From assembly GCA_964518505.1 (NCBI GenBank), contig CAZFGT010000003.1, forward strand, positions 26,589-90,588: DNA of 64,000 nt, read 5' to 3'. Every line of letters starts with the position of its first letter. Position 1 is the first letter of the stretch. The DNA comes from an uncultured Anaerolineaceae bacterium. Its GTDB lineage: Bacteria; Chloroflexota; Limnocylindria; Limnocylindrales; CSP1-4. Of the stretch, positions 1 through 56,519 are shown piece after piece. Both the position numbers and the translations under genes were made by a program. Under the pieces are notes generated by a model, which saw only the letters and a list, made by a program, of their open reading frames with translations, did no database searches and was not told the DNA's origin.

Positions 1-437
1 TGACGCCGGTGTGGCAGGCGCTGGGCGCCCATCCCGGCGCCATCGACTTGAGCGGTTTGGGCGTGGGCCTGCTGATCGCCGTCCTCGTCGTGCCGCCCAT
101 CCTGACCGTGCTGCTGGCCCTGCCGTTCTGGATGCTCTTCACGAAGCTGCGCTTCTGGCAGGCCCTCGTGATCGGCTTCCTCTGCTTCAACGCCCTGGTC
201 GGCGCGGCGGTCCTCATCTGGGCCGCCTTCAGCTTCGACGCGGTGATGGGCCTGCTCTGGTTCCTGGGCAAGACCTACGTCTTCGTCGTGATCTTCGTGT
301 GGATGCGCGCCACCCTGCCGCGCGTGCGCATCGACCAGCTGATGGGCTTCGCCTGGAAGTGGCTCCTGCCGGCCTCGCTGGCCAACCTGTTCGTGACCGC
401 CCTGGCCATCCTGATCATCGCCCAGGTGCGCGGATGA
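1..437 (+). CDS. nuoH: NADH-quinone oxidoreductase subunit H (C-terminal part; 5' end lies outside the window)
   Basis: ORF 9..437 carries the NuoH/ND1 C-terminal motifs ([19 protein letters not shown]) and several TM helices. Its TGA stop overlaps the next ATG (ATGA at 434-437). Confidence 0.88.
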
Positions 438-1267
438 GCTTCGTGCCCGGGCTGGGGATCCTCAAGGGGATGGCCCTCACCTTCCGCAACATGCTGCGCC
501 TCAAGCCCACGGTGCAGTACCCCGAGGAGGTGTACCCAGTCGCGCCGCGCCACCGCGGCCGCCTCCTGCTGCTCTATGACGAGGCCGGGGCGCTGAAATG
601 CGAGACCTGCTTCCAGTGCGCCCAGGCGTGCCCCATCGAGTGCATCGACATGGGCGGAGTGGACACGCGCGACCGCTACCACGTCCACTGGGGCCCCGCC
701 GAGCAGTACGGCGAACGCCGCGAGGAGTCGGCCCTGCGCCGCTCCGGCCGGCCGGTCCCCGATCCCACCGCGACGCCCTTCGAGCCCATCGACACGGCCG
801 CCCTCGACGCCATCCTGGCCGACGAGGGCTACGACCCGCGCCACATGTTGGCCATCCTGGGCCGCACCCAGGACGCCTACGGCCACCTGTCGGTCGCGGC
901 GCTCAAGCACATCAGCCATGCCACCGGCGCGTGGTACGCCGAGGTATACGGCACGGCCACCTTCTACGACCAGCTGCGCATGGCCCCGGCCGGCGGCCAT
1001 GTGCTGGCCATCTGCCGCTGCCCCAGCTGTACCTTCCGCGGCGCGGGCCGCGTGCTCGCTGCCGCGGAGGCGGCGGCCTCGACGACCCTCGGCGGCAGCA
1101 GCCCCGAGGGCGCCGTGCGGCTCGAAGCGGCGGCCTGCCACGGCGGCTCGCCGGGGGCCGCCTACGTGACGCTCGACGGCGCCGTCCAGGCCGAGCCGAC
1201 GGCCAGGGGCATCACCGATCTGCTGACCCGCCTGCGGGCCGGCCATGCGCCGGCGGGACGGGCCTGA
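434..1267 (+). CDS. NuoI-like (single [4Fe-4S] motif) fused to a NuoE-like thioredoxin-fold [2Fe-2S] domain
   Basis: The N-terminus aligns by eye to NuoI/Nqo9 ([33 protein letters not shown]). Only the first CxxCxxCxxxCP motif is present; the second is absent. The C-terminal half matches NuoE/Nqo2 ([29 protein letters not shown]). Start ATG 434 overlaps the nuoH stop; stop 1265-1267 lies 1 nt before the nuoF ATG. Confidence 0.75.
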
Positions 1268-1268
1268 G

Positions 1269-2597
1269 ATGACCGCCCCCATCCTGCGCCAGCCGGCCGG
1301 CTGGCCGTCGGTGCTCCTCGCCCGAGCCGCCAAGCTCGACGCCCGGGCCGATCTGGCCGAGGCGGAGAAGCTGGGCGCCTGGGCCGCCTGGAAGGCGGCC
1401 GTCCGACAGGGCCCGGAGGCGGTGGTGCGGGCCGTCAGCGACGCCGGCCTGCGGGGCCGTGGCGGGGCCGGCTATCCCACGGCCGACAAGTGGCGCGCCG
1501 TGCGTGCGCAGCCCGCCCTGGTCCGCTACGCCGTGGCCAACGGCTACGAGGCCGATCCGGGTGTCGTCGTCGACCGCACGCTGATGGAAGCTGACCCCCA
1601 CGCCGTGCTGGAGGGCCTGGCCCTCGCCGCCTTTGCCGTCGGCGCCCAGGAGGCCTTCCTCGTCGTGCGCGCCGACGCGAGTGCCGCCATCGAGCGGCTC
1701 ACGGCGGCGCTCGAGGCGGCCGTGGCGGCGGGCTACCTGGGCGACGACGTGCTCGGCAGCGGCGTGACCGTGGAGATCCAGATCCGGCCGCTGGAGGGCG
1801 GCTTCGTGCTCGGCGAGGAGACCGTCCTGCTGAAGGCGCTGGAGGGCAAGCGGGGCGTGCCGGAGCAGCGGCCGCCGTACCCCTCTGAGCGTGGCCTTTT
1901 CGGGGCCCCCACCGCGGTCAACAACGTGGCCACCCTGGCGAGCGTGCCCTGGCTGCTCATCAACGGGCCGGCCACGTTCCGGGCCATCGGCGATCCGGAC
2001 TACCCGGGCACCGTCCTCGTGCAGCTCAGTGGCGCCGTCCATCGGCCGGGCGTGGCCGAGGTGCCCACCGGCACGCCCCTCGCCGTGGTCATCGACAAGG
2101 CCGGCGGCGGCGCGACCGGGCAGCTCAAGGCGGCCCTCGTGGGTGGCCCCTCGGGCGGCTTCCTGCCCCCCGACGCCCTGGCCACGCCCCTCGCGCCCGA
2201 CGCGCTCGAAGCGGCGGGGGCGATCATGGGCTCGGGCTCCCTGCTCGTGCTCGACGAGCACGCCTGCATCGTCGAGCTGGCGACGCTCATGGAGCGCTTC
2301 ATGAACGACGAGTCGTGCGGCAAATGCATCCCCTGCCGCATCGGCACGCGCCGCCTCACGGAGATCGGCGAGCGCTTCATGAGCGGCCGTCCGCGGCCCA
2401 CCGACACGGGCCTCCTGCTGGACCTGGCGGCCGATGTCCGGGATGGCTCGCTGTGCGGCCACGGCATCACGGCCCCCAATCCGCTCACATCCGGGATGCG
2501 ATACTTCGGCCAGGAATTCGACGACCACATCGTGCGCGGCCGGTGCGCCGCCGGGGTGTGCAAGCCCCTGCGCGTCGCCGCCGGAGCCGCCCGATGA
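1269..2597 (+). CDS. nuoF: NADH-quinone oxidoreductase subunit F (51 kDa, FMN/NADH-binding)
   Basis: GLRGRGGAGYPT FMN/NADH-site motif and ESCGKCIPCRIG [4Fe-4S] (N3) motif. The ORF frame holds a conserved length of about 440 aa. Start chosen at MTAPIL (ATG 1269), immediately after the upstream stop. Confidence 0.9.
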   Translation: MTAPILRQPAGWPSVLLARAAKLDARADLAEAEKLGAWAAWKAAVRQGPEAVVRAVSDAGLRGRGGAGYPTADKWRAVRAQPALVRYAVANGYEADPGVVVDRTLMEADPHAVLEGLALAAFAVGAQEAFLVVRADASAAIERLTAALEAAVAAGYLGDDVLGSGVTVEIQIRPLEGGFVLGEETVLLKALEGKRGVPEQRPPYPSERGLFGAPTAVNNVATLASVPWLLINGPATFRAIGDPDYPGTVLVQLSGAVHRPGVAEVPTGTPLAVVIDKAGGGATGQLKAALVGGPSGGFLPPDALATPLAPDALEAAGAIMGSGSLLVLDEHACIVELATLMERFMNDESCGKCIPCRIGTRRLTEIGERFMSGRPRPTDTGLLLDLAADVRDGSLCGHGITAPNPLTSGMRYFGQEFDDHIVRGRCAAGVCKPLRVAAGAAR

Positions 2598-2631: not shown

Positions 2632-5199
2632 ATGACCGACCTGCTGCCTGCGCCGACCGCCGCCCAGGACTCGCTCGCCGACCGCCTGCTCGAGACGCAG
2701 GCGCCGCAGCGCCCCCAGGTCAGCCCCGCCATCACCATCGAGGTGGACGGCCGGCAGATCACCGGTCGCGAGGGCCAGACGATCCTGGAGCTGTGCCGCG
2801 ACAACGGCATCGAGATCCCCACCCTCTGCTACGAGCCCAAGCTGCCGGGCTTCGGGGCCTGCCGCATGTGCGTCGTGGACCTGGCCGGGGAGGATCAGCC
2901 GCCCATCAGCTGCTCGCGCGCCGCCGAGGCGGGCATGGTCGTGCAGACACAGACCGCGCGGATCCGCCAGCTGCGCAAGACCAACCTGGAGCTGATCTTC
3001 AGCGACCACAACGCCTACTGCCTGCCGCCGTGCCAGAACAAGTGCCCCAGCCACATCGACATCCCGGGCTTCCTGAAGGCCAACACGGAAGGCAACTTCG
3101 TCGAGTCGGCGCGCATCTTCAAGCGCACCATCCCCTTCCCCAGCATCCTGGGGCGGGTCTGCCCCGCGCCGTGCGAGGAGCACTGCCGCCGCGACGAGGT
3201 GGACGAGGCGATCGCCATCCGCGACAGCCACCGCTACGCCGGCGACCAGGTCCTCAAGGCGCTGGGCCGGGGCCAGAAGGCGCCCGTGCCGTTCGAGGTG
3301 CAGGCACCGTCGGGCAAGCGGGTGGCGGTCATCGGCTCGGGCCCGGCGGGCGCCTCGGCCGCCTACTACCTGGCCATCGCCGGCCACGAGGTGACGATCT
3401 TCGAGCGTGACCCGGCGCCCGGCGGCATGCTGCGCTACGGCATCCCGCAGTACCGCCTGCCCAAGGACGAGGTGCTGGCCGGGGAGTACGAGAGCCTCAC
3501 CGACCTGGGCATCCGCATGGTCTGCGACCGCGCCCTGGGCCGCGACTTCACCGTCGACGACCTGCAGAACCAGGGCTTCGATGCGGTCTGCGTGGCCATC
3601 GGCTGCTACGACACGAACAAGCTCGGCGTGCCCGGCGAGGACGCCCCCGACGTGCTCGACGGCCTGGAGTACCTGCGCATCGCCACGCTCGGTCTGCCCT
3701 ACCCCGGCCACAAGGGCAAGCGGGTGGTCGTCATCGGCGGCGGTTTCACCTCCATGGACTGCACCCGCACGTCGCTGCGGCAGGGCGCCAGTGAGGTCAC
3801 GCTCGTCTACCGCCGCGACATGAAGGAGATGTCGGCCGCCAACGAGGTCCACGAGGCCATCGAGGAGGGCGCGCGGGCCATCTTCCAGGCGGCCCCCACG
3901 CGCGTCCTGTCCGACGCCAAGGGCAAGGTCACGGGGGTGGAGTTCATCCGCATGCGGCTCGGCGCCCCGGACGAGAAGGGCCGCCGCCGACCGGAGCCGG
4001 TCGAGGGCACCGAGTTCACCATCCCCTGCGACCGCGTCCTGCTGGCCATCGGCCAGGGCCCCGACCTCACCTGGCTCGACCACGGCTCCGACGGCCTGGC
4101 CGCCTCCAAGCAGCGACGCCTGCAGGCCGACGCCGTCACCTTCGCCACCGGGCGGGCCGGCGTCTTCGCCACGGGCGACGTGCGCGTCGGCGCCACCACG
4201 GTCGTCCAGGCCGTGGGCGAGGGCCGCCGCTCGGCGTACGCCATCGATGCGTACCTCAAGGGCCACGACCTGGAGGCGATCCGGACGCGCCAGACGCTGG
4301 CCGAGCCGCAGCCCGAGTTCCTCTCCATCGTGCCCTACACCGACGAGCGCAAGGAACCGCGCCTGCGGCTGAAGTCGATGGCGCCCGAGGTGCGCAAGCA
4401 GAGCTACATCGAATACGAGATCCCTTACACGCAGCAGGAGGCGATGAGCGAGTCGGGGCGCTGCCTGCAGTGCACCTGCGAAGCGATCGGCTTCTGCGAT
4501 CTGCGCCGTCAGGGCATCGAGTACGGCACGACGCTGCCGACCCTGGAGCCGGCGCGGACGGGCCTGTCCTTCCGCTCGGTGACCGAGAACCGCTTCACCG
4601 GTCACAACCACGACTACATCCGCGACGACAGCCACGCCTTCATCCTGCGGGAGCCGTCGCGCTGCATCGACTGCGGCCGCTGCGCCAACGTGTGCAAGGA
4701 GGTCGTGGGGGCGGCCTGCTACGACTTCATGCGTACGGGCTTCGACACGCTCGTCACGACGCCCCTCGACATGAGCCTCAACACGACCCCCTGCGTGAGT
4801 TGCGGGCGGTGCGCCGAGACGTGCCCGACGGGCGCGCTGATGCCCAAGCCGCGGGTGCTGGAGCGCTACGACGTCGACGAGAGCCGCTGCATCCTGTGTG
4901 GCATCTGTGTCGATGCGTGCCCCTATGACGCGCTGCGCTGCGGGCCCGACTTCGAGCTCTCCCACGAGAGCCGGGCCGAGCCCCTGATCGACCTGCTGGC
5001 CATCAGCGCCATCGAGCACACCAGCGAGGTCACCTACATCCAGCGCGAACGCGACTGGCTGACGCGGGCCCAGGCGGCGGGCCGGTCGGTCGACGCCGGG
5101 CGCCTCCTGCCGGTCCTGCCGGCCAGCGTGCGCGGCAACGGCCACGGTAACGGGCTGGGCAACGGCCACGGCGACGGCCACGCGTCCGACGCCTCCTAG
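2632..5199 (+). CDS. NuoG-position subunit: NuoG-type [2Fe-2S] N-domain + GltD-like FAD/NAD(P)H flavoprotein + 2x[4Fe-4S] ferredoxin; lacks the molybdopterin-like domain
   Basis: The N-terminus (ITIEVDGRQI..LCYEPKL..GACRMCVV) matches the NuoG/Nqo3 ferredoxin domain. The middle matches the glutamate synthase small subunit (CLPPCQNKCP, GRVCPAPCEEHC, KRVAVIGSGPAG, KRVVVIGGGFTSMDC, GRRRPEP). The C-terminus has CIDCGRCANVC, CVSCGRCAETCP and CILCGICVDACP motifs and a His/Gly tail (GNGHGNGLGNGHGDGH). Start ATG 2632 is the first in-frame ATG after the nuoF stop at 2597. Confidence 0.8.
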   Translation: MTDLLPAPTAAQDSLADRLLETQAPQRPQVSPAITIEVDGRQITGREGQTILELCRDNGIEIPTLCYEPKLPGFGACRMCVVDLAGEDQPPISCSRAAEAGMVVQTQTARIRQLRKTNLELIFSDHNAYCLPPCQNKCPSHIDIPGFLKANTEGNFVESARIFKRTIPFPSILGRVCPAPCEEHCRRDEVDEAIAIRDSHRYAGDQVLKALGRGQKAPVPFEVQAPSGKRVAVIGSGPAGASAAYYLAIAGHEVTIFERDPAPGGMLRYGIPQYRLPKDEVLAGEYESLTDLGIRMVCDRALGRDFTVDDLQNQGFDAVCVAIGCYDTNKLGVPGEDAPDVLDGLEYLRIATLGLPYPGHKGKRVVVIGGGFTSMDCTRTSLRQGASEVTLVYRRDMKEMSAANEVHEAIEEGARAIFQAAPTRVLSDAKGKVTGVEFIRMRLGAPDEKGRRRPEPVEGTEFTIPCDRVLLAIGQGPDLTWLDHGSDGLAASKQRRLQADAVTFATGRAGVFATGDVRVGATTVVQAVGEGRRSAYAIDAYLKGHDLEAIRTRQTLAEPQPEFLSIVPYTDERKEPRLRLKSMAPEVRKQSYIEYEIPYTQQEAMSESGRCLQCTCEAIGFCDLRRQGIEYGTTLPTLEPARTGLSFRSVTENRFTGHNHDYIRDDSHAFILREPSRCIDCGRCANVCKEVVGAACYDFMRTGFDTLVTTPLDMSLNTTPCVSCGRCAETCPTGALMPKPRVLERYDVDESRCILCGICVDACPYDALRCGPDFELSHESRAEPLIDLLAISAIEHTSEVTYIQRERDWLTRAQAAGRSVDAGRLLPVLPASVRGNGHGNGLGNGHGDGHASDAS

Positions 5200-5205
5200 G
5201 TCGCC

Positions 5206-5760
5206 ATGCTGAGCATCCCCTCCACGATCCCGCTGCTCGGCTGGACCTGGAACGACCTGCTGTTCCTGATCCTGGCCGGCGGCCTCCTGGGCTCGGCCCT
5301 CATGGTCGTCCTGGGGCGGGACATCATCCGCTGCGGCCTGTGGATGATCGTCTGCTTCCTGTTCCTGGCCGGCCTCTACGTGCTGCTGGGCAATCCGCTC
5401 GTGGCCGGCGCGCAGGTGCTGGTCTACATCGGCGCCATCAGCGTGCTGATCCTCTTCGCCGTCATGCTCACCCAGTCCAAGGCCGGCCCGGCGCGCCTGG
5501 TCTTCCACCACCAGGCGTGGGCCGCCGCCCTGGCCGCGATCGGCCTGGCCGTGGTGCTGGTGATCGTCGACGGGGCCACCAGCTGGCCGCTGGCCCAGCC
5601 GGACCGCACCGCGACGGCGACCACCGACGTCGCCTCGAAGCTCTTCAGTGACTTTGTGCTGCCGTTCGAGGTGGTCAGCGTGCTCCTGCTGGCGGCCGTC
5701 ATCGGCGGCGTCTTCCTGGCCAAGAAAGATGACGCGCCTCGCTCCGACAGCGACATATGA
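5206..5760 (+). CDS. nuoJ: NADH-quinone oxidoreductase subunit J
   Basis: 184-aa polytopic protein with a NuoJ/ND6-like profile (…[16 protein letters not shown]…), positioned before nuoK with an ATGA overlap. Confidence 0.8.
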
Positions 5761-6068
5761 GCCAGAACCTCGACGCCTACCTCGTCCTCTCGGCGCTCCT
5801 CTTCTGTATCGGCGTCTTCGGCTTCCTGGCCCGGCGCAACGCGATCTCCATGCTCATGTGCATCGAGCTGATGCTCAACGCGGTGAACCTGGCCATCCTG
5901 GCCTTCGGCGCGTTCGTGCCGTCGCTGCACGGCAACGCCGCGGTCATCGCCCTCATCGTCATGGCCGTGGCGGCCGGCGAGGCGACCGTGGGCCTGGCCA
6001 TCGTCATCGCCATCTACCGCAACCGGCGCACGCCGCTGGTCGATGAGTACGCCCAGATGCGTGACTGA
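5757..6068 (+). CDS. nuoK: NADH-quinone oxidoreductase subunit K
   Basis: 103 aa with three TM helices and conserved NuoK/ND4L motifs ([12 protein letters not shown]…ELMLNAVNL…EATVGLAIV). Confidence 0.9.
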
Positions 6069-6071
6069 GCG

Positions 6072-8036
6072 GTGACCCAGCTGACGGTCCTGCTCCTGCT
6101 CCTGCCGGTGGCCGGCTTCGCCATCACGGCACTCGTCGGGCGACGCCTTGGGGCGAGCTCGTGGGTGCCTGCCGTGGCGGCCATCGTGGCCACCTGGGCC
6201 GTGGCCATGGTCGTCGTCTACGGCCAGCTGAGCGGCGGCAACGGCGACACGGGCCTGCAGGTCACGCTCTACCGCTGGATCCCGGCCGGCGCCTTCACCA
6301 TCGACTTCAACCTGGCGGTGGACAACCTGACCGCGGCGCTGCTCATCGTGGTCACCACGGTAGGCATGCTGGTCCACGTCTACTCGATCGGCTACATGGC
6401 CCACGACCCGGGCCGGTGGCGCTTCTTCGCCTACCTCAACTTCTTCATGTTCAGCATGCTGCTGCTGGTCCTGGCGGGCAACTTCCTGCTGCTGTTCGCG
6501 GCGTGGGAGCTGGTCGGCCTGTCGAGCTACCTGCTCATCGGCTTCTGGTACCGGCGGCACAGCGCGGCCCTGGCAGCCAAGAAGGCCTTCCTGGTCAACC
6601 GCGTCGGCGACGTCGGCTTCGCCCTCGGCATCATGGCCGTCTGGTCGACCGTGGGGACGCTCAACTTCACCGATGTGTTCAACCTCCTGCCGGCCAAGCT
6701 GGCCAGCGGCGCCATCCAGCCCTGGGAGATGACCGGCATCGCCCTGCTGCTCTTCTGCGGGGCGGTCGGCAAGAGCGCCCAGTTCCCCCTCCACGTCTGG
6801 CTGCCCGACGCGATGGAGGGCCCCACGCCCGTGAGCGCCCTGATCCATGCGGCGACCATGGTCAACGCCGGCGTCTACTTCGTGGCCCGGGCCAACCCCA
6901 TCTTCAGCCAGAGCGGGTCGGCCATGGTCATCGTCGCCGCGATCGGCATCTTCACGGCCCTGCTGGCCGCCTCGATCGCCCTGACCCAGACCGACATCAA
7001 GCGCGTCCTGGCCTACTCCACGCTGAGCCAGCTGGGCTACATGTTCGCGGCCCTCGGCGTGGGCGCCTACGTGGCCGCCATCTTCCATCTCATGGCCCAC
7101 GGCTTCTTCAAGGGCCTGCTGTTCCTCGATTCGGGCTCGGTCATCCACGGCGTGCACGACGAGCAGGACATGAACCGCATGGGCGGCCTGTGGCGGAAGC
7201 TGCCGGTGACCCACGCCACGATGCTCGTGGGCACCCTGGCCATCGCCGGCATCCCGCCGCTGGCAGGCTTCTTCAGCAAGGATGAGATCCTGGGCCAGAG
7301 CTTCAAGGCCGGCTTCCTGTGGGTCTGGATCGTGGGCATCGGGGTGGCCGGCCTGACCGCCTTCTACATGTTCCGGCTCATGGGCAAGACGTTCTACGGG
7401 CCCAGCCACGTCGACCCGGCCGTGGAACCGCAGGTCCACGAGTCGCCGCGCTCGATGACGGTGCCGCTCGTCCTGCTGGCCATCCCGTCGGCCCTGCTCG
7501 GCCTGGGTCTGGGCCTGCCGTTCGGCGCCGGCGCGATCTCCAGCTGGCTCGATCCGGTCTTCGCCCACGCGGAGCAGACCCTGGGCCGCAGCCCCGAGTC
7601 GTTCAGCCTCTTCGGCCTCGACGGCGCCCTGATCCTCATCAGCGTCACCGTGGCGGCCGTGGGCACGATCGCCGGCATGCGGCTGTTCGGCTTCCACTGG
7701 CCGTTCACGGCGCGCGAGACGGCGCCTCTGCCCGATCGGGTGGCGGCCATCACCGCCCGCCTGCGGCCGCTCTACACGGCGTCGTTCCACAAGTGGTGGT
7801 TCGACGACCTCAACGACCTGATCTTCGTGCGCTTCGGCAGCCGCCTGGCCAACGGGGCGTGGTGGTTCGACCGCACGGTCGTCGACGGCACCGTCAACGG
7901 CACCGGGCGCTTCATCCAGCGCACCGGTCGCGAGGTGCGCCAGATCCAGACCGGCCACGTCCAGAACTACGCCCTGGGCATCGCCCTCGGCCTGCTCGTG
8001 GTGGCCGGCGGCTACCTGCTCCTGGCGGGCCGCTGA
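6072..8036 (+). CDS. nuoL: NADH-quinone oxidoreductase subunit L
   Basis: 654-aa antiporter-like subunit (WEL/GLSSYLLIGFW, long C-terminal extension). GTG start 4 nt after the nuoK stop. Confidence 0.9.
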   Translation: MTQLTVLLLLLPVAGFAITALVGRRLGASSWVPAVAAIVATWAVAMVVVYGQLSGGNGDTGLQVTLYRWIPAGAFTIDFNLAVDNLTAALLIVVTTVGMLVHVYSIGYMAHDPGRWRFFAYLNFFMFSMLLLVLAGNFLLLFAAWELVGLSSYLLIGFWYRRHSAALAAKKAFLVNRVGDVGFALGIMAVWSTVGTLNFTDVFNLLPAKLASGAIQPWEMTGIALLLFCGAVGKSAQFPLHVWLPDAMEGPTPVSALIHAATMVNAGVYFVARANPIFSQSGSAMVIVAAIGIFTALLAASIALTQTDIKRVLAYSTLSQLGYMFAALGVGAYVAAIFHLMAHGFFKGLLFLDSGSVIHGVHDEQDMNRMGGLWRKLPVTHATMLVGTLAIAGIPPLAGFFSKDEILGQSFKAGFLWVWIVGIGVAGLTAFYMFRLMGKTFYGPSHVDPAVEPQVHESPRSMTVPLVLLAIPSALLGLGLGLPFGAGAISSWLDPVFAHAEQTLGRSPESFSLFGLDGALILISVTVAAVGTIAGMRLFGFHWPFTARETAPLPDRVAAITARLRPLYTASFHKWWFDDLNDLIFVRFGSRLANGAWWFDRTVVDGTVNGTGRFIQRTGREVRQIQTGHVQNYALGIALGLLVVAGGYLLLAGR

Positions 8037-9574
8037 TGGCCGGCCTGCCCCTCCTCGCGCTGGTCGTCTTCAGCCCGCTCGTCGGCGCGCTGCTCATCGC
8101 CTTCATGCCGCGCGACCGCGTGGTGCTCATCCGCCGGCTGGCCCTGGCCACGGCCCTTGTCAGCTTCGGCTTCTCGCTGCTCCTGCTGATCGGCTTCAAC
8201 GGCGCCGCGTCGGATGCCGGGGGCTTCCGCTTCGTCGAGACGGCGACGTGGGTACCCGCCTTCGGCATCCAGTTCAAGCTGGGCGTGGACGGCATCAGCC
8301 TGCTGCTGGTGGTGCTCACCACGCTGCTCACGTGGATCAGCATCCTGGCCAGCTTCGGCCCCATCCGGGAGCGGGTGAAGGAGTACATGATCTCCTTCCT
8401 CATCCTCGAGGTGGGCATGCTGGGCGTCTTCCTGGCGCTCGACCTCTTCCTCTTCTACGTCTTCTGGGAAGTGGTCCTCGTGCCGATGTACCTCATCATC
8501 GGCATCTGGGGCGGGCCCAACCGCATCTACGCCACGATCAAGTTCGTCCTCTACACGCTGGTCGGCTCGCTGCTCATGCTGGTGGCCATCCTGGCCACCG
8601 CGTTCGCCTTCGCCTCCGCCCACGGCGGCGACTTCACGGGCGCCTTCGACTACGAGCAGCTGCGCGGCTTCCCCTTCACCGACGTGCTCCAGACCGGCGC
8701 CTTCCTGGCCTTCTTCCTGGCCTTCGCCATCAAGGTGCCGATGGTGCCCTTCCACACATGGCTGCCCGACGCGCACGTGGAGGCGCCCACCGCCGGCTCG
8801 GTGATCCTGGCCGGCGTCCTGCTCAAGCTCGGCGCCTATGGCTTCATCCGCTTCTCGCTGCCCCTCTTCCCGCACGCGGCGCAGTCGTTCGCGGTGCCCA
8901 TCGTGGTGCTGTCGCTGATCGCCATCATCTATGGCGCGATCGTGGCCCTGGTCCAGACCGACCTGAAGAAGCTCATCGCTTACTCGTCGGTGAGCCACAT
9001 GGGCTTCGTGACCCTGGGCATCTTCATCTTCCAGCAGCAGGGCCTCCAGGGCGCGGTGCTCCAGATGGTCAACCACGGGCTCATCACGGGCGCCCTCTTC
9101 CTGCTGGTCGGCGTCATCTACGAGCGCGGCCATGACCGCACCATCGCGCGGATGGGTGGCCTGGCCGGTGCGACACCGGTGTACGCCGTGGCCTTCGGCT
9201 TCTTCATGCTGGCCAGCGTCGGCCTGCCCGGCCTGGCCGGCTTCGTGGGTGAGTTCCTGGTCTTCCAGGGCTCGTTCGTGGCCTGGCCCCTGTACGCGGC
9301 CATCGCCGTGCTGGTCATGACGCTGGGGGCGGCCTACCTGCTGTGGCTGTACCAGCGGATGTTCACCGGCGAGCTGTCCGACTTCTTCCGCGGCCTGGGC
9401 GACCACCTGACCGACCTGAGCCCGGTGGAGGTCATGACGCTCGTGCCCCTGGGCACGCTGGTGCTCCTGCTGGGCCTCTTCCCGGGGCTCGCCCTTGGCG
9501 TCATCCAGGGACCCACGGACAGCGTCCTCAACGCCGTCCATGGCACCGTGACCGCCCTGGCGGGCACCCCGTGA
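8036..9574 (+). CDS. nuoM: NADH-quinone oxidoreductase subunit M
   Basis: 512-aa NuoM/ND4-like antiporter subunit (FFLAFAIKVPMVPFHTWLPDAHVEAPT). ATG overlaps the nuoL TGA. Confidence 0.9.
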   Translation: MAGLPLLALVVFSPLVGALLIAFMPRDRVVLIRRLALATALVSFGFSLLLLIGFNGAASDAGGFRFVETATWVPAFGIQFKLGVDGISLLLVVLTTLLTWISILASFGPIRERVKEYMISFLILEVGMLGVFLALDLFLFYVFWEVVLVPMYLIIGIWGGPNRIYATIKFVLYTLVGSLLMLVAILATAFAFASAHGGDFTGAFDYEQLRGFPFTDVLQTGAFLAFFLAFAIKVPMVPFHTWLPDAHVEAPTAGSVILAGVLLKLGAYGFIRFSLPLFPHAAQSFAVPIVVLSLIAIIYGAIVALVQTDLKKLIAYSSVSHMGFVTLGIFIFQQQGLQGAVLQMVNHGLITGALFLLVGVIYERGHDRTIARMGGLAGATPVYAVAFGFFMLASVGLPGLAGFVGEFLVFQGSFVAWPLYAAIAVLVMTLGAAYLLWLYQRMFTGELSDFFRGLGDHLTDLSPVEVMTLVPLGTLVLLLGLFPGLALGVIQGPTDSVLNAVHGTVTALAGTP

Positions 9575-11058
9575 CCGGGCCCGAGCTGGCGGCCATCGCG
9601 CCGTTCGGCTACGTCGTCGCGCTGGCGGTGCTGGTCATCCTGGCCGACATCGTGCGGCCCGGCGACGAGCGCGTGACGATCGTCATCGGGACGGTGGGGA
9701 CCCTCGTGGGACTCGTCCTCGTGGTGGCCGTCGGGCTCGGCGGGACGGTGCAGCCCGTCTTCGGCGGCGCCTACCAGCTGGATCCGCTGACGACGTTCCT
9801 GGACATGCTCTTCCTGGCCATCGCGTTCCTGACCATCCTCTTCTCGCCCGACTACCTGCGGCCGCGTCACTACCCCCTGCCCGAGTACGTGGCGACCCTC
9901 CTGTTCGCCATCAGCGGCGCCATGCTCATCTCCGCCGCCCGTGACCTGTTGGTCCTGTTCCTTGGCCTGGAGCTCCTGGTACTGCCCGGCTACATGCTCG
10001 TGGCCTACGCCAAGCGGGACGGCCTGGCCACCGAGGGCGCCATCAAGTACTTCCTGCTCGGCTCGTTCTCCTCGGCCATCTTCCTCTTCGGCCTGGCCTT
10101 CACCTGGGGCTACACCGGCACGACGAGCGTGGCCGGCGTGGCGTCACACCTCCAGCAGGTGGTGACCAGCGGGCAGGTGCCGGCCGCCGGGTTGCTGATG
10201 GGCCTCGCGCTGATGACCACCGGGGTGGCCTTCAAGATCGCCGCGGTGCCCTTCCACTACTGGACACCGGATGCGTACCAGGGCTCGCCCACGCCGGTCA
10301 CCGGCTACCTCTCGGTGGGGCCCAAGATCGCCGCCTTCGCCCTCATCCTGCGCCTCTTCGCCGAGGCCCTGGCCCCCATGCGCGCCGACTGGGTCGGCGT
10401 GGTCGTGGTGCTGGCCGCCCTGACCATGACGCTGGGCAACCTGGTGGCCCTGACGCAGGACAACATCAAGCGGATGCTGGCCTACTCGTCGATCGCCCAC
10501 ACCGGCTACATCCTCGTCGGCCTGGCCGCCTTCGCCGGTGCGCCGGCGGGTTCCAGCGCGGCCTCGGCCGGCATCGCCGGCGTGCTCTTCTACAGCGCCG
10601 CCTACACCTTCATGAACCTGGGCGCGTTCGCCGTGGTGGCCGCCCTCCAGGGCCGGCCCGGCGTGACCAGCCAGATCGCCACGTTCGCCGGCCTGGGGCG
10701 CCGCGCCCCGCTGGCCGGCGCGCTGATGCTGCTGTTCCTGCTGTCGCTGACGGGGATCCCGCCCACAGCTGGCTTCTTCGCCAAGGCGTACGTCATCGAG
10801 GCCGCCCTGCAGTCGGGCGGGCTGGTGCCCTGGCTGGCCGTGATCGCCGTCGTCAACGCGGCGATGGCCGCCTTCTACTACCTGCGCGTGGTGGTGGTGA
10901 TGTACATGCAGGAGCCGGCGGCCGACGCCCAGCCGGTCACCGACAGCCGACCGATGCGCCTGGGCCTCCTCATCGCGGCCGTGGCCACAGTGCTCATCGG
11001 CGTGGTCCCCGGCCTGCTCATCCCGATGGCCCAGGCCGCCGCCGCGGCCATCCAGTAG
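9571..11058 (+). CDS. nuoN: NADH-quinone oxidoreductase subunit N
   Basis: 495-aa NuoN/ND2-like subunit (AAVPFHYWTPDAYQGSPTPVT). GTG start overlaps the nuoM stop (GTGA). Confidence 0.9.
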   Translation: MTGPELAAIAPFGYVVALAVLVILADIVRPGDERVTIVIGTVGTLVGLVLVVAVGLGGTVQPVFGGAYQLDPLTTFLDMLFLAIAFLTILFSPDYLRPRHYPLPEYVATLLFAISGAMLISAARDLLVLFLGLELLVLPGYMLVAYAKRDGLATEGAIKYFLLGSFSSAIFLFGLAFTWGYTGTTSVAGVASHLQQVVTSGQVPAAGLLMGLALMTTGVAFKIAAVPFHYWTPDAYQGSPTPVTGYLSVGPKIAAFALILRLFAEALAPMRADWVGVVVVLAALTMTLGNLVALTQDNIKRMLAYSSIAHTGYILVGLAAFAGAPAGSSAASAGIAGVLFYSAAYTFMNLGAFAVVAALQGRPGVTSQIATFAGLGRRAPLAGALMLLFLLSLTGIPPTAGFFAKAYVIEAALQSGGLVPWLAVIAVVNAAMAAFYYLRVVVVMYMQEPAADAQPVTDSRPMRLGLLIAAVATVLIGVVPGLLIPMAQAAAAAIQ

Positions 11059-15427: not shown

Positions 15428-15760
15428 ATGGCCAGCCCGGCCCGCATCCGCGCCACGATCGCCTCCGTCACCACGGCTCCCGACGAGCTGCGCGAACTGC
15501 GCGCGTTCCACAAGGCCCTCGCCGACGTCAACCGCCTGCGGCTGGTCCGCCGCCTGGCCGACGGGCCGGCGACCGTGGCCGAGCTGACCGAGCATGTCGG
15601 CCTGTCGCAGCCCCTGGTCAGCTGGCACCTCGGCCGCCTCCGCGCCGCCGGGCTCGTGGCCATGCGTCGCAGCGGCCGGGAGACGGTGTGTAGCCTCGAA
15701 CCCGCGGCGCTCCTGGCCGCCGAGCAGCGCGAGCGCGCGTGGCTGGGCCTGGCGGGATGA
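15428..15760 (+). CDS. ArsR/SmtB-family transcriptional regulator
   Basis: Winged-HTH signature LADVNRLRLVRRLADGPATVAELTEHVGLSQPLVSWHL. It is divergent from the MFS pump, and its stop overlaps the next ATG (ATGA). Confidence 0.85.
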   Translation: MASPARIRATIASVTTAPDELRELRAFHKALADVNRLRLVRRLADGPATVAELTEHVGLSQPLVSWHLGRLRAAGLVAMRRSGRETVCSLEPAALLAAEQRERAWLGLAG

Positions 15761-16392
15761 ACCTCAAGGAGGGCTCGCTGCTGTCGGTCGCCGCGCGCGA
15801 TCGCTTCCGCCACCGCGTGGAGCCGTACGCCGCCAACCTCGCCCGGGTCGGCCTGACGCCCAACGCGCTGACGCTGATCGGCTTCGGCATCTCCGTCGCG
15901 GCGGCCGCCCTGGGCGGCCTGCAGCTGTGGCTGGCCTGCGGGCTGGTGGCCACGTTCGGGGCCGCCTTCGACATGTTCGACGGCGCCGTGGCCCGCGCCA
16001 CCGGCACGGCCAGCCCGTTCGGCGCGTTCATGGACAGCACCTTCGACCGCTGGGGCGAGGGCATCGTCTACGCCGGCATCGCCACCGGGGCGGCCCTGGC
16101 GGGCCAGTCGGTGACCGTCCTGCTGGCGGCGCTGGCGATGGGCGCCGCCTTCATGGTCAGCTACAGCCGGGCCAAGGCGGAGAGCCTTGGCTGGCATGGC
16201 GAGACGGGCATCGCCCCGCGCCCCGAGCGCGTCGTGCTCCTGGGCCTGGGCCTCGTGGCGGCTGGCCTGGGGGGTGGACCGGCCGGCGGCCCGTGGCTCC
16301 AGCTGGCCCTTGCCGCCATCGCCGTCCTCGGCACCGTCACGGTCATCCAACGCATCGTCTACGTCCAGCATCAGGCAGAAGGGACCAGGTAG
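15757..16392 (+). CDS. CDP-alcohol phosphatidyltransferase (phosphatidylinositol-phosphate synthase-like, PgsA1 type)
   Basis: D-x2-DG-x2-AR…G-x3-D-x3-D motif (FDMFDGAVARATG…FMDSTFDRWGE) and multiple TM helices. Confidence 0.85.
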   Translation: MNLKEGSLLSVAARDRFRHRVEPYAANLARVGLTPNALTLIGFGISVAAAALGGLQLWLACGLVATFGAAFDMFDGAVARATGTASPFGAFMDSTFDRWGEGIVYAGIATGAALAGQSVTVLLAALAMGAAFMVSYSRAKAESLGWHGETGIAPRPERVVLLGLGLVAAGLGGGPAGGPWLQLALAAIAVLGTVTVIQRIVYVQHQAEGTR

Positions 16393-16398
16393 GAGCAC

Positions 16399-17631
16399 AT
16401 GGAGCAGCACGTGAGCAAGAACGGGCAGGAGAAGGAAGCGCCGGCGAAGGGCAGCGGCAAGCGCGGCGACGGCAAGATCCGCGTCGCCATCGTGGGCGTC
16501 GGCAACTGTGCCAGCAGCCTGGTGCAGGGCCGCTACTACTACGAGAACGCCAAGGACGACGAGTTCGTGCCGGGCCTCATGCACGTCAACCTGGGCGGGT
16601 ACCACATCCGCGACATCGAGTTCGTGGCCGCCTTCGACATCGACAAGAACAAGGTCGGCAAGGACCTGTCCGAGGCGATCTACACCAAGCCCAACAACAC
16701 CTACGTCTTCAAGCAGGTCCCCCACATCGGGGTCAAGGTCGAGCGCGGGATGACCCACGACGGCCTGGGCAAGTACCTCAGCCAGATCATCGAGAAGGCG
16801 CCCGGCCCGACGGCCGATGTGGTGGGCATCCTCAAGTCGCGCAAGGTCGACGTCGTCGTCTCCTACCTGCCGGTCGGCTCGGAGGAGGCCACCAAGTGGT
16901 ACGTCGAGCAGGCCCTGGCGGCCGGCGTCGGCTTCGTCAACGCCATCCCCGTCTTCATCGGCCGCGAGCCGTACTGGCAGCGCCGCTTCGCCGAGAAGGG
17001 CCTGCCGGTCATCGGCGACGACATCAAGAGCCAGGTCGGGGCCACCATCACGCACCGCGTCCTGACCCGCCTCTTCATGGATCGCGGCGTGCGCCTGGAC
17101 CGCACGTACCAGCTCAACTTCGGCGGCAACACCGACTTCCTGAACATGCTCGAGCGCGAGCGCCTGGAGTCCAAGAAGATCAGCAAGACCAACGCCGTCA
17201 CGTCGATGCTCGACTACGACATCGACCCCGACGACATCCATGTCGGCCCGTCCGACCACGTGCCGTGGCTGCTCGACCGTAAGTGGTGCTACATCCGCAT
17301 GGAGGGCACGACCTACGGCGACGTGCCCCTCAACGCCGAGCTCAAGCTCGAGGTCTGGGACAGCCCCAACAGCGCCGGCGTCATCACCGACGCGGTCCGC
17401 TGCCTGAAGCTGGGCCTGGATCGCGGCCTGAAGGGCACGCTCGTGGCGCCGTCCTCGTACTTCATGAAGAGCCCGCCGATCCAGATCCACGACGACATCG
17501 CCTTCGAGCGGGTCGAGGCCTTCATCCGGGGCGAGGACAACGAGACCCTGGTGGGCACCGAGGCAGCCCCGGCGCGTCGCATGCGCCGGATGGCCCCGGC
17601 GCGCGCCAAGGCGAGCGTGGCGGCACGCTGA
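16399..17631 (+). CDS. ino1: myo-inositol-1-phosphate synthase
   Basis: Conserved MIPS motifs ([39 protein letters not shown]). 410 aa. Confidence 0.9.
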
Positions 17632-17735
17632 AGCGCCGCACGCCCGGATCGGGAGCCGCACCCCCAGCGCCTCCCGCGCCGGTGGCCTCCACGACCGTAC
17701 CCGCGCCGCATCGCCCGCCCGCCCGCGGCGGACGG

Positions 17736-18734
17736 GTGCGGCGCACCCTGCTGCGCGCCAACGAGAAGGCGACCGTGACCGCCTACCGGGCCACCTCGGC
17801 CGTGATGGGCCACGTCCCCGTGGGCGTGGCCTGGCCGGTGGCGCGCGCCGGGTTCCTCGCCGGCTACGCGGCGTGGCCGGCCAAGCGACGCATCATCCAG
17901 GCCAATGCGGGCCACATCCTGGGCGTGCCGCCGGACGATCCCGCCGCGCGGCGGCTCGCCCGGCGCGTCTACCAGACGTACGCGCGGTACGTCGTGGAGC
18001 TGATGCGGCTGCCCTCGCGGCCGCTCGACGAGCCTGGGCGCCTGTTCGAGACCGGGGGCCCGGGTGGCTACGACTCGTTCCGGGCGCTCTACGAACGGAC
18101 CGCCGCGGAGGGCCGCTCGCTCATCGCCGTGAGCTGCCACATCGGCAGCATCGAGACCCTCGTGGCCGCCTTCGCGACACGCGGCATGCCCGTCTACGGC
18201 CTGGCCGACGACAGCGCCTATCCCGAGCTCTACGAACTCCTCCAGGCGCAGCGGCGCCGCTGGGGTGTGGAGGTCGTCCCCTGGCGCAACCTCCGGTCGC
18301 TCTTCCGCATCCTCCGCCAGCCGGTCGTGCTGGGCCTGCTCGTCGACTGGGGCTATCGCGCCGAGGACGTGCCGGTCCGCCTCTTCGGGGCCTGGACCAC
18401 GCTGCCGGCCGGCCCGGCGGTGCTCGCCGCGCGGACGGGGGCACGCCTCGTACCGGTCGCCTGCCGCCGGCTGCCCGATGGGCACTACGAGGCGCAGCAC
18501 CTGGATCCGATCGAGGTCCGCGACGGCTCCCCGGCCGGCGTGGCCCGGGCGACCCAGGCCATCGCCGACGCCGTGGAGACCATGGTCCGCGTCGCGCCCG
18601 CCCAGTGGTACACGTTCAAGCGCATGTGGCCGGCGACGGACGCCGAGGCGCAGACGCTGGCCGCGCGAGCCGCCGGCATGCTGGCCGACAAGGCGCCGGT
18701 CGAAGCGGCGGCGGCTGAGCCGGCCCCGGCATGA
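17736..18734 (+). CDS. Lysophospholipid acyltransferase (LpxL/HtrB family, PatA-like), copy 1
   Basis: LPLAT-family pattern (N-terminal amphipathic segment, HIGSIE, LVDWGYRAED…RLFG, PAGPAVLAARTGARLVPV). GTG start at 17736 is assumed; upstream ORF sequence overlaps ino1 in another frame. Confidence 0.7.
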   Translation: MRRTLLRANEKATVTAYRATSAVMGHVPVGVAWPVARAGFLAGYAAWPAKRRIIQANAGHILGVPPDDPAARRLARRVYQTYARYVVELMRLPSRPLDEPGRLFETGGPGGYDSFRALYERTAAEGRSLIAVSCHIGSIETLVAAFATRGMPVYGLADDSAYPELYELLQAQRRRWGVEVVPWRNLRSLFRILRQPVVLGLLVDWGYRAEDVPVRLFGAWTTLPAGPAVLAARTGARLVPVACRRLPDGHYEAQHLDPIEVRDGSPAGVARATQAIADAVETMVRVAPAQWYTFKRMWPATDAEAQTLAARAAGMLADKAPVEAAAAEPAPA

Positions 18735-19711
18735 GCGAACCGCCGACCGGCACGCCGCGCCAGCGCCTCACGGCACGCCTCGTGGCGGCCGGCTCCGCCC
18801 TCGCCTGCCGGCTGCCGGGCGGCCCCCTTGAGCGCCTGGCCGACGCCCTTGGCGGGGCCCGCTACCTCCTCGCCCGGGCGCCGCAGCGGGACCTCGTGCG
18901 GGCCAACATGCGGCGGGTCTGTGAGGGCCTGGTGGCGGCCGGGCTGGCCACCCCGCGCGTCACGGCGGCCACGAGCGACCCGCGCGTCCTTGACGACCTG
19001 GTCCGCGGCGTCTACCGCCATCACGCCCGATACCTGGTGGAGTTGATGCGCGGGCCGACCATGACGGCCGCCTGGCTGGCGTCCCACCTCGTGATCGAGA
19101 CGCCGGAGACGATCGACGCCGCCTACGCGCGCGTCGCCGCCGGCGGTGCCCTGCTCGCCCTCGGCCTGCATTTCGGGCCCGTCGAGATGCCCGCCATCTA
19201 CAGCGCGGTGCGCAGCGGACGACGCGTCGCCGGCCCCATGGAGATCATCGACAATCCGCCGCTCCAGGCGTGGTTCACGGCCCAGCGGGAACGCCTGGGG
19301 GTGCAGGCCGTCATGCCGCCCGAGACGGCCGGGCCGGAGCTCCGGCGCACCCTCCGCGAGGGCGGCCTGGTGGGCATCGTGGCCGACCGCGACATCGCCG
19401 GCAGCGGCCGGCCGACCCGGCTGTTCGGCGCGCCGGCGCCCCTGTCGGCCGGCCCGGCCCTGCTGGCCCTGGAGAGCGGCGTGCCCACGTACGCCGTGGC
19501 CATCCGGCGGGTGGGGTGGAGTCGCTACGCGGGTCGCATGGTGCCGCTCGACCTGCCCAGCGGCGGCTCGCTGCGCCAGCGCGTCGAGGCCTTCATGGAA
19601 GGCGAGGCGCGCGCCTTCGAACGCCTCGTGGCCGCCGCGCCGGAGCAATGGTGGGCCCTCCTGTTCCCCATCTGGCCCGACCTCGTGCCCTCCACTGCGG
19701 CCGGCGCATGA
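18731..19711 (+). CDS. Lysophospholipid acyltransferase (LpxL/HtrB family), copy 2
   Basis: A paralogous LPLAT (HFGPVE, IVADRDIAGSGRPTRLFG, PAGPALLALESGVPTYAV). Start overlaps the copy 1 stop (ATGA). Confidence 0.7.
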   Translation: MSEPPTGTPRQRLTARLVAAGSALACRLPGGPLERLADALGGARYLLARAPQRDLVRANMRRVCEGLVAAGLATPRVTAATSDPRVLDDLVRGVYRHHARYLVELMRGPTMTAAWLASHLVIETPETIDAAYARVAAGGALLALGLHFGPVEMPAIYSAVRSGRRVAGPMEIIDNPPLQAWFTAQRERLGVQAVMPPETAGPELRRTLREGGLVGIVADRDIAGSGRPTRLFGAPAPLSAGPALLALESGVPTYAVAIRRVGWSRYAGRMVPLDLPSGGSLRQRVEAFMEGEARAFERLVAAAPEQWWALLFPIWPDLVPSTAAGA

Positions 19712-20544
19712 GCGCCGTCGATCCCGCCGACGTGACGCGCCCCGGGCGGGCCGACCTGCACATCCACACCGCGGCCTCGGACGGCACGGCGCCCGTGACC
19801 GACGTCCTCGAGCGCGTGGCGGCGCGGGGCGACCTGGACGTCATCGCCATCGCCGATCACGACCGCCTGGATGCCGCACTCGCGGCGCAGGCCATGGCCC
19901 GCAGCCGGGCGTACCCCTTCCAGGTGGTCGTGGGCGAGGAGGTCAGTACTCGCGGGGGGCACCTGCTCGGGCTATTCCTGACCAGCCGCGTCCGGCCCTG
20001 GCGCTCGATGCGGGCCACGATCGCTGAGGTCCATGCCCAGGGGGGCCTGGCGGTGCCTGCCCATCCGTTCATCCCCTACCCGCTGTGCGTCAGCCGCCGC
20101 ACGCTGCTGCGACTGCTGGCCGACCCCGACCCGAACGTGCATCCGGACGCCCTCGAGGTCTTCAACCCGACCACCATCGGCCGCCGCTGGCACCCCCAGG
20201 TGGTGGCCTTCGCCGCCCAGCACGGACTGCCGGGCATCGGCGACAGCGACGCCCACGAGCTGGACCAGATCGGCCAGGGCTGGACCGGCTTCCCGGGCCG
20301 CACCGCGGATGACCTGCGCCAAGCCATCCTGGCCGGCACGACGACCTGGCACGGCGACTTCTACCCGCGGTTCGCCCAGGTGGGCATGGTCGGCCGCCAG
20401 TACCGCAAGAAGGCCCTGGACCTCTCGGCCGACCTGGGCGGCCGCCTGCTGCGGCGAGGCACTGGCCGCGACCTGGGCTACCCGGGCGGACGCGAGCGGC
20501 CTGCTCGCTACGGAGCGGACACCGAGGAGGCCGGCCGGCCGTGA
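19708..20544 (+). CDS. PHP-domain metal-dependent phosphoesterase
   Basis: DLHIHTAASDG, IAIADHD and His-rich PHP signatures. ATGA overlap with the upstream gene; GTGA overlap with the downstream GT4. Confidence 0.75.
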   Translation: MSAVDPADVTRPGRADLHIHTAASDGTAPVTDVLERVAARGDLDVIAIADHDRLDAALAAQAMARSRAYPFQVVVGEEVSTRGGHLLGLFLTSRVRPWRSMRATIAEVHAQGGLAVPAHPFIPYPLCVSRRTLLRLLADPDPNVHPDALEVFNPTTIGRRWHPQVVAFAAQHGLPGIGDSDAHELDQIGQGWTGFPGRTADDLRQAILAGTTTWHGDFYPRFAQVGMVGRQYRKKALDLSADLGGRLLRRGTGRDLGYPGGRERPARYGADTEEAGRP

Positions 20545-34961: not shown

Positions 34962-35004
34962 CGCTGCCCTCCGGCGCGTGCGGGCACGGCCGGACCGCTG
35001 GCCG

Positions 35005-38549: not shown

Positions 38550-38588
38550 CGGCCCGATGGTAGCCTCCAGCGGCGCTAAGCTGCGCCG

Positions 38589-39281: not shown

Positions 39282-39334
39282 GTAGGCTTCGGCCGGCCCG
39301 GGGGGCGACGGACGTGCGGGACCGGTCCGTTCGT

Positions 39335-39647: not shown

Positions 39648-39686
39648 CCTCCGCCCGGATCGAGGCCGCACCGCATCACTCTGCGC

Positions 39687-56511: not shown

Positions 56512-56519
56512 CGCGCGGC

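Follow-up and report, generated by a model that had tools for sequence, protein, structure and literature searches.

We analyzed a 64,000-nucleotide (nt) stretch of DNA (hereafter the window) from an uncultured Anaerolineaceae bacterium of the Limnocylindrales lineage CSP1-4 (assembly GCA_964518505.1, contig CAZFGT010000003.1, positions 26,589 to 90,588), and the question raised by its nuo operon is what has become of NuoI, the subunit of respiratory complex I known also as Nqo9, TYKY or NDUFS8 that carries clusters N6a and N6b. Few core subunits of complex I are as conserved as NuoI, whose two clusters provide the sole route from the NADH module to cluster N2 and quinone. The gene at 434..1267 (+), identified as an open reading frame (ORF) with profile and PDB matches, encodes a 277-aa protein in which an N-terminal half of NuoI is fused to a NuoE-like domain, and the initial annotation of the window had proposed that cluster N6b is lost from it. 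The comparisons reported here argue against such a loss and indicate that NuoI is encoded as two halves in this Chloroflexota lineage, so that the ‘missing’ motif is not lost. We consider it likely that the operon encodes a complex I with a split nuoI, the halves of which would be reassembled in trans, and that this enzyme carries an NfnABC/StnABC-like NAD(P)H module.

The two NuoI segments

The start codon of the flagged gene overlaps the stop codon of nuoH (ATGA), and the gene ends 1 nt upstream of the nuoF ATG. Residues 1-95 of the protein (434..718, +; hereafter I_N) comprise the NuoI N-terminal helix, the YPE/PRHRGR region, the first NuoI cluster motif CxxCxxCxxxCP, which was located by a motif scan at 599..634 (+), and the next strand. 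Residues 9-80 matched NuoI models with a coverage that stops at about position 84 of the 180 positions of the model (NF004536, E=1.2e-15), and the match to TIGR01971 spans model positions 1-66 of 121 at 48.3 bits, which is below the cut-off of 113. A phmmer search of the PDB aligned residues 7-95 to residues 5-91 of Mycobacterium smegmatis NuoI (8e9g_I), and the NuoI-like character of the first 95 or so residues, through the first motif, is thereby confirmed. A linker (719..787, +) that is nearly invariant in a 25-member alignment leads from I_N to a thioredoxin-fold [2Fe-2S] domain of the NuoE/FdsG/NfnC type (788..1237, +). Residues 119-268 matched the thioredoxin-like [2Fe-2S] family PF01257 (E=5.5e-22; 78.6 bits compared with a gathering cut-off of 24.8), and in the phmmer search residues 112-273 aligned to NuoE, FdsG, HydC, StnA and NfnC chains.

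We modeled the fusion protein with AlphaFold2 from a 54-sequence alignment and with no partner chain. The NuoE-like domain reached a predicted local distance difference test (pLDDT) score above 90, and Foldseek matched it to FdsG, NfnC, HydC and NuoE with E values down to 3e-12, in agreement with the first description of the C-terminal half as NuoE-like. Among the NCBIfam models, FdsG (formate dehydrogenase gamma) gave 79 bits and HoxE 74 bits on this part, both below their own cut-offs, and the NuoE equivalogs (NF005722 and others) also stayed below theirs, with 64.1 bits for the NuoE model compared with a cut-off of 141. The only name that current pipelines give to the flagged protein is ‘NAD(P)H-dependent oxidoreductase subunit E’, and NuoI therefore looks absent from Limnocylindria genomes.

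The cluster cysteines of the NuoE-like domain are C194, C196 and C199 (nt 1013-1030) together with C235 (nt 1136-1138), and the non-canonical CxCxxC...C pattern noted previously is real. C194 and C199 retain the canonical Cx4C spacing and C235 is the third canonical cysteine; the position of the fourth corresponds to S239, which is Ser or a variable residue across the family. The extra cysteine, C196, is invariant in the family and could stand in for the missing fourth ligand of the [2Fe-2S] cluster. The [2Fe-2S] site may be remodelled or decaying. In a divergent paralogous family labelled Limnocylindria (P0134), the equivalent of C235 is also lost.

The fusion protein contains a single CxxCxxCxxxCP motif (nt 599-634), and translation of all frames of positions 400-1300 revealed no second one, so the absence of the second motif from the flagged polypeptide stands as first described. 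With one motif per polypeptide and a score below cut-off, the flagged protein lies outside the NuoI equivalog families (TIGR01971/PRK05888). The second motif and the NuoI sequence that follows it are encoded at 4849..5121 (+; hereafter I_C), 3.6 kb downstream of I_N, as the C-terminal part of an 855-aa protein (2632..5199). This segment contains the motif CILCGICVDACP (nt 4888-4923) followed by YDALRCGPDFELSHESRAEP, and the DFE(L/M) region is present after the motif, as in NuoI. I_C matched positions 72-113 of the 121 positions of TIGR01971 (E=1.4e-11) and TYKY/NuoI chains of many species (E ~1e-14), and in M. smegmatis NuoI it aligned to residues 84-130, which continue the residues 5-91 covered by I_N.

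To assess the complementarity of the halves, we joined residues 1-93 of the fusion protein in silico to the C-terminal part of the large protein. The join aligned to M. smegmatis NuoI residues 5-130 as a single stretch with one 2-residue gap (E=2e-23, compared with 7.7e-11 and 3.1e-8 for the halves separately), and it was also continuous against the E. coli, Paracoccus and mitochondrial subunits. Coverage of TIGR01971 rose from 1-67 plus 72-113 to 1-113 of 121 positions, and the score from 51.6 plus 44.1 to 96.8 bits. Exactly four CxxCxxCxxxC motifs occur in the 64-kb window, two of them in the NuoG-type domain of the large protein and one orphan in each of the two fusion proteins.

In 2x[4Fe-4S] ferredoxins and in Nqo9, each cluster is held by three cysteines of one motif and a fourth from the other. 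Because ferredoxin clusters share their motifs in this way, neither half would hold a complete cluster alone, and together they provide all eight ligands. The flagged protein alone would supply three ligands of N6a and one of N6b, and is therefore not a one-cluster NuoI. As all eight ligands are encoded across the two fusion proteins, the proposed loss of cluster N6b is unsupported.

Conservation of the architecture and of its input module

The fusion of NuoI and NuoE sequence is conserved well beyond the window. Gene calling gave an identical protein on 19 contigs, drawn from several ENA assemblies and a single JGI metagenome, and the protein database yielded more than 120 clusters at 60-98% identity with lengths of 265-283 aa, the named ones being Candidatus Limnocylindrales or Chloroflexi. 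A scan of species-representative genomes confirmed 556 loci, and the best 80 of the 556 were nearly all from Chloroflexota metagenome-assembled genomes (MAGs) of the lineage, CSP1-4 included. We compared species-representative loci with their 20-kb flanks. One uninterrupted ORF covered both the NuoI-like and the NuoE-like part in 86 of 86 loci; a single ORF likewise spanned the ferredoxin domain and I_C in 65 of 66, the exception having the appearance of an assembly frameshift. The order D-H-[I_N::E]-F-[2Fe2S-GltD-Fd::I_C]-J-K was kept in all of the 80 loci whose contig reaches far enough. In the 25-member alignment C56, C59, C62, C66, C194, C196, C199 and C235 were invariant, and so were all eight NuoI cysteines when both halves were taken together.

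These results bear on whether a sequencing, assembly or gene-calling error, such as a frameshift or a chimeric contig, could mimic a truncated NuoI fused to NuoE. The window is metagenomic, and frameshifts do occur elsewhere in related MAG loci: in L010 (CSP1-4) and L026 (a long-read MAG), the frame breaks within the large protein, in or just after the ferredoxin domain. Those two breaks are probably assembly errors and illustrate how the architecture could be mis-annotated. However, the recurrence of an identical protein in independent ENA and JGI assemblies, the near-equal length of the clusters, the 556 genome loci and the intact ORF in every one of the 86 loci refute an artefact, the chance of which we regard as negligible. 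In addition, no motif is concealed in another frame, as a scan of all six frames of the 64-kb window for CxxCxxCxxxC revealed no hidden copy. A frameshift, which the initial annotation had suggested checking for, does not explain the fusion.

On independent contigs the operon consists of 13 genes in the order nuoA-B-C-D-H-[I_N::E]-F-[2Fe2S-GltD-NuoG-type Fd::I_C]-J-K-L-M-N, with nuoA, B, C and D lying upstream on contigs longer than the window. NuoB, D, H and L scored above their curated NCBIfam cut-offs and A, C and J matched Nuo models; the subunits of the Q and P modules are of the bona fide Nuo type.

The three proteins of the input module have a different affinity. The gene at 1269..2597 (+) encodes a NuoF-like FMN/NADH subunit of 442 aa (PF01512, PF10589, TIGR01959) with the cysteines of the N3 cluster. 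Its best PDB match was NfnB (9bov_B), at 386 bits over residues 117-526 of 584, compared with 291 bits for the best complex I NuoF. Pfam detected only PF01512, PF10589 and SLBB in this protein, and by Pfam and the NfnB alignment the additional domains of BfuB (an N-terminal [2Fe-2S] domain and a C-terminal 2x[4Fe-4S] domain, carrying clusters B2-B5) are absent from it.

The 855-aa protein encoded at 2632..5199 (+) combines a [2Fe-2S] domain, a GltD-like FAD/NADPH domain, a NuoG/HydA-type two-cluster ferredoxin domain and the C-half of NuoI. Its NuoG/HoxU-type [2Fe-2S] domain (2728..3006, +; PF13510, E=5.4e-19) contains C66, C77, C80 and C94. The GltD/NfnB-like domain (3007..4431, +; PF14691, PF07992; NF009454, 556 bits) aligned to 9bov_A, 4ylf_B and GltD, and contains two [4Fe-4S] sites (Cx3Cx3CP and Cx3Cx3C), an FAD Rossmann motif (GSGPAG) and a second Rossmann motif (GGGFTSMD...YRR). 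The respective motifs and cysteines correspond to the FMN/NADH and N3 sites of NuoF and to the FAD and second-dinucleotide sites of the GltD domain. The ferredoxin domain (4594..4848, +) has two complete motifs (nt 4663-4698 and 4792-4827) and aligned to residues 592-699 of NfnA (9bov_A). It was 90-100% identical across species, compared with about 47-70% for the NuoE-like domain, NuoF and NuoJ, and a constraint this extreme may fit a densely packed junction, perhaps with the NuoI halves. After the ferredoxin domain, the large protein has the NuoI C-half (about 90 residues) instead of an FdhF-like (formate-dehydrogenase-like) domain, which is absent. The protein ends in a low-complexity tail rich in Gly, His and Asn (5122..5196, +; beginning GNGHGNGLGNGHGDGH); a similar tail of variable sequence is present in related genomes, and it could bind metal or be flexible.

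Over most of its length (aa 34-762 to residues 4-698), the large protein aligned to Caldicellulosiruptor saccharolyticus NfnA (9bov_A; E=7e-158), and it also matched Thermococcus NfnA and Sporomusa StnC; the best matches of the NuoE-like domain include NfnC and StnA. The StnABC and NfnABC chains are thus the best PDB matches for all three module proteins, and the E-, F- and G-like proteins are nearer to the Bfu-type transhydrogenases (NfnABC/StnABC) than to complex I subunits. The initial annotation had recognized the fusion but overlooked that it forms the edge of a three-gene insertion and that the E-, F- and G-like proteins are of the Nfn/Stn type.

The window system invites comparison with several described enzymes. 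It shares with NuoI the position between nuoH and nuoJ, the N-terminal region, both motifs and the DFE(L/M) region; unlike NuoI, it is divided into two segments, each fused to another redox subunit. With StnABC of Sporomusa ovata and NfnABC of Caldicellulosiruptor and Thermococcus it shares a NuoE-like, a NuoF-like and a large [2Fe-2S]-GltD-NuoG-type subunit. StnC has a [2Fe-2S] domain and NuoG-type clusters, together with a GltD NADPH/FAD domain as an insertion and, at residues 683-1172, an FdhF-like domain that is inactive (PMC10482914). In contrast to those enzymes, the module described here is embedded in a nuo operon, its NuoF is without the N-terminal thioredoxin-like [2Fe-2S] and C-terminal ferredoxin domains, its large subunit ends in the NuoI C-half without an FdhF-like domain, and its NuoE-like subunit carries the NuoI N-half.

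Among the Bfu enzymes, Nuo-Bfu, Mbh-Bfu and Por-Bfu have been predicted from BfuABC genes located mid-operon in membrane complexes, and Nuo-Bfu has 14 subunits (A-N), in which the module replaces NuoEFG and uses NADH and ferredoxin (PMC9304861). The present operon resembles Nuo-Bfu in having a BfuABC-type module mid-operon in place of NuoEFG, and Por-Bfu-like clusters resemble one of the relatives described below (L090). The extra domains of BfuB occur in all true bifurcating homologs and are missing from the non-bifurcating ones (Schut et al. 2022, PMC9304861). The window NuoF lacks these hallmark domains and so differs from BfuB as defined in that work, and the window enzyme is not a true Bfu enzyme; the window system would work like both NuoI and the Bfu enzymes. 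A split NuoI does not appear in the text of PMC9304861, and neither does a GltD domain in Nuo. Other known nuo fusions are NuoCD and NuoBCD, and mbx-like operons have a GltD-related flavoprotein that replaces NuoI (Degli Esposti 2015, PMC4758237). These cases provide a precedent for subunit fusion and for a GltD-type NAD(P)H site near the NuoI position, but they fuse whole subunits or replace NuoI, whereas here NuoI is split and both halves are kept. We found no description of a split NuoI or of Limnocylindria complex I in the searchable literature, subscription-only papers being outside its scope.

Probable assembly in trans and the competing readings

The architecture could have arisen by the insertion, once, of a three-gene Nfn/Stn-like operon into the nuoI loop between the cluster motifs, in a nuo operon of the 11-subunit type. 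One insertion within nuoI would thereby account for both in-frame fusions, the first joining the NuoI N-half to the NuoE-like subunit and the second joining a StnC/NfnA-like [2Fe-2S]-GltD-ferredoxin protein to the NuoI C-half, and because of the gene order a single insertion is the simplest account. We infer that the NuoI halves fold in trans into the usual 2x[4Fe-4S] domain. The ligands of N6a would be C56, C59 and C62 from the fusion protein plus C763 from the large protein, and those of N6b would be C66 from the fusion protein plus C753, C756 and C759 from the large protein. Both clusters would then lie between subunits, wiring and stapling the input module to NuoH, NuoB and NuoD, and this anchoring might compensate for the docking role of the FdhF-like domain of NuoG that is missing here. 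In the AlphaFold2 model of the fusion protein without a partner, the NuoI-like core (aa 25-107) had a pLDDT of only 36-50 next to the confidently folded NuoE-like domain, and we count this absence of a confident fold in favor of pairing in trans.

NADH would deliver its electrons to the FMN of NuoF, and NADPH probably to the FAD of the GltD domain; NADPH use and the direction of electron flow we likewise infer. The two inputs would meet in the Fe-S chain of the large protein and continue via the two-cluster ferredoxin domain to N6a, N6b and N2 and on to menaquinone, with proton pumping. We place less confidence in this dual function with NADH and NADPH donors than in the split of NuoI itself. 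Beyond this, we advance only tentatively, with rather more doubt than conviction, that the operon represents a class of complex I not recognised before, where the insertion of an Nfn/Stn-type NADH/NADPH module in nuoI places N6a and N6b at the interface of two fusion proteins and both NADH and NADPH are oxidised. The module and the NuoI halves would in that case be a portable connector, found also on a POR-linked soluble enzyme and, in a sister lineage, together with a full bifurcating-type NuoF that would couple flavin/Fe-S bifurcation directly to quinone reduction and proton pumping.

If true, a natural split of NuoI is an unusual way to build and dock a redox module, with each half welded to a different input subunit, and would amount to a natural protein-fragment complementation via shared Fe-S clusters, fixed across a class of abundant soil and freshwater bacteria. 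The arrangement further suggests that NADPH as well as NADH feeds the respiratory chain through one proton-pumping enzyme, and such a dual input, if true, changes the models of redox balance and energy yield for these organisms.

Several observations weigh against a NuoI that is reassembled in trans and fed by two donors. The join, at 96.8 bits, remains below the TIGR01971 cut-off of 113 and is a divergent NuoI; the two halves, like the join, score under the NCBIfam NuoI cut-offs. An AlphaFold2 model of the joined NuoI, made from the single sequence, had a pLDDT of 36 and was uninformative. In canonical complex I NuoE is far from NuoI, and because of this a linker of about 25 residues between the two implies a differently docked module. 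For the GltD domain, NADPH specificity is a prediction from homology. It is also possible that an intact nuoI exists elsewhere in the same genomes, beyond the 20-kb flanks compared, and its presence would weigh in the same direction. Finally, motif spacing alone also permits a cis ferredoxin formed by the last NuoG-type motif and the I_C motif.

The last of these points leads to a different wiring, in which the I_C motif and the motif preceding it, CVSCGRCAETCP, would constitute a cis 2x[4Fe-4S] ferredoxin, and I_N would pair with the first NuoG-type motif or be a structural anchor with an incomplete cluster or none. Some 21 residues separate CVSCGRCAETCP from CILCGICVDACP, a ferredoxin-like distance, and the pair is recognised as a dicluster domain by Pfam Fer4_7. 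We nevertheless regard this wiring as improbable, since motifs 1 and 2, along with an insert of about 40 residues, are matched as one block by the two-cluster domain in NfnA, StnC and HydA, and the third motif and its downstream sequence are specific to the second half of NuoI (E~1e-14). Moreover, I_N aligns to the first half of NuoI with the NuoI-only regions included, the join is an uninterrupted NuoI alignment, and all four I_N cysteines are invariant. The same evidence bears on a true loss of N6b, by which the fusion protein would hold a single [4Fe-4S] cluster and the electron wire from the N to the Q module would be shortened or altered. Such a loss would accord with the one CxxCxxCxxxCP motif within the flagged polypeptide, but it is made very improbable by the occurrence in the same operon of a second motif and a NuoI-specific C-terminal sequence, with invariant cysteines and complementary to I_N. 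It also conflicts with established ferredoxin chemistry, in which the four cysteines of one ferredoxin motif do not ligate one cluster, and with the low model confidence of I_N alone.

A further reading retains the architecture but makes the GltD site the output. The enzyme would then be an NADP+ reductase or transhydrogenase linked to the proton-motive force or to quinol or, where a full Bfu-type NuoF is present, a bifurcating or confurcating NADH/NADPH/ferredoxin:quinone machine. In its favor, the nearest solved relatives are reversible NADH/NADPH/ferredoxin transhydrogenases (PMC10482914), and in the sister family L093 both extra BfuB domains, the N-terminal [2Fe-2S] and the C-terminal ferredoxin domain, are retained, and these are regarded as hallmarks of bifurcation (PMC9304861). 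We consider an output at the GltD site unlikely, although less so than the two preceding readings: the window NuoF is without the hallmark domains, and such homologs are reported to be non-bifurcating (Schut et al., PMC9304861); a ferredoxin-binding domain is not evident in the window operon; and the direction of flow is unreadable from sequence.

Divergent relatives and the remainder of the window

A profile search of 1.84 billion representatives recovered divergent full-length fusions. One family, of 253-aa fusions, has at least 120 clusters, with one member labelled Thermoleophilia. Its operon (L093:6255-20762, GCA_040769125.1) has the order A-B-C-D-H-[I_N::E]-F-[2Fe2S-GltD-Fd::I_C]-J-K-L-M-N and is collinear with that of the window, the fusion proteins being 27% and the large proteins 44% identical. 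The L093 NuoF is a full BfuB-type protein of 636 aa with the N-terminal [2Fe-2S] and C-terminal ferredoxin domains, and the NuoE-like domain has the canonical Cx4C...Cx3C pattern. L093 is thus a candidate quinone-linked, proton-pumping bifurcating enzyme, and a sister family with a complete Bfu-type flavoprotein bears on how an N-module was recruited to the 11-subunit ancestor of complex I. A second divergent type of complex I (L088), known from a partial operon, has the same order, with CIFCSECVEVCPHNAL ending the GltD protein.

The design was also found outside nuo operons. The products of a soluble cluster linked to pyruvate:ferredoxin oxidoreductase (POR) (L090:97-7726) are a delta-ferredoxin and POR alpha, a half-ferredoxin::NuoE-like and a BfuB-type protein, and a 1060-aa fusion, the last of which consists of [2Fe2S]-GltD-Fd-half-ferredoxin (CIMCRECVGVCPVDAL) followed by a POR beta domain. 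When the two L090 halves were joined, NuoI models were the best matches (TIGR01971, E=4.8e-18, in a single stretch). Its named relatives are Thermoleophilia or Actinomycetia. For the POR-linked relative P0200 we had expected Dehalococcoides, which was rejected as the named relatives are Thermoleophilia and Actinomycetia instead. The recurrence of the two-fusion design in L093 and L088 (complex I) and in L090 (soluble, POR-linked) counts in favor of a split NuoI. The split connector is present in both complex I and POR-linked clusters, and the NuoI-like connector therefore travels with the module.

The remaining nuo genes of the window are all on the forward strand. The 3' part of nuoH lies at 9..437 (+; PF00146, E=1.1e-14), the start of the gene being upstream of the window, and the window part of nuoH upstream of the Pfam match looks hydrophobic. 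The full NuoH, seen in L001, has 460 aa and scored 321.6 bits with NF004741, compared with an equivalog cut-off of 305; alongside the 375-aa NuoH of L093, this protein (L001:8622-10001) shows about 85 inserted residues (aa ~313-398). The NuoB of the same locus (L001:6124-6819; 232 aa) has an N-terminal extension of about 70 residues ahead of the start of the NuoB model. Downstream of the large protein are nuoJ (5206..5760, +; PF00499), nuoK (5757..6068, +; PF00420) and nuoL (6072..8036, +; NF005141, 711 bits compared with a cut-off of 556), followed by nuoM (8036..9574, +) and nuoN (9571..11058, +), each of which was identified by the gene call in L001 and by PF00361.

Elsewhere in the window, a recF-like gene (33834..35042, -), dnaA (36503..38218, -) and yidC (40198..41568, +) are grouped within 33834..41568, with an ORF at 35005..36120 between recF and dnaA; the grouping therefore points to a chromosomal origin region about 30 kb from the nuo operon. 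Positions 15739..21725 encode a CDP-alcohol phosphatidyltransferase, a myo-inositol-1-phosphate synthase, a lipid A-type acyltransferase and a GT4 glycosyltransferase, a set reminiscent of phosphatidylinositol-mannoside synthesis, which to our knowledge is unusual outside Actinomycetota. A 1697-aa ORF at 23366..28462 (-) has protein-O-mannosyltransferase (PMT) as its sole match, in the C-terminal half, and its N-terminal ~950 aa have no Pfam match. Finally, a 1061-aa protein with DAO, FAO_M and GCV_T domains, of the dimethylglycine/sarcosine dehydrogenase type, is encoded at 54061..57249 (-) and has an N-terminal extension of about 250 aa.

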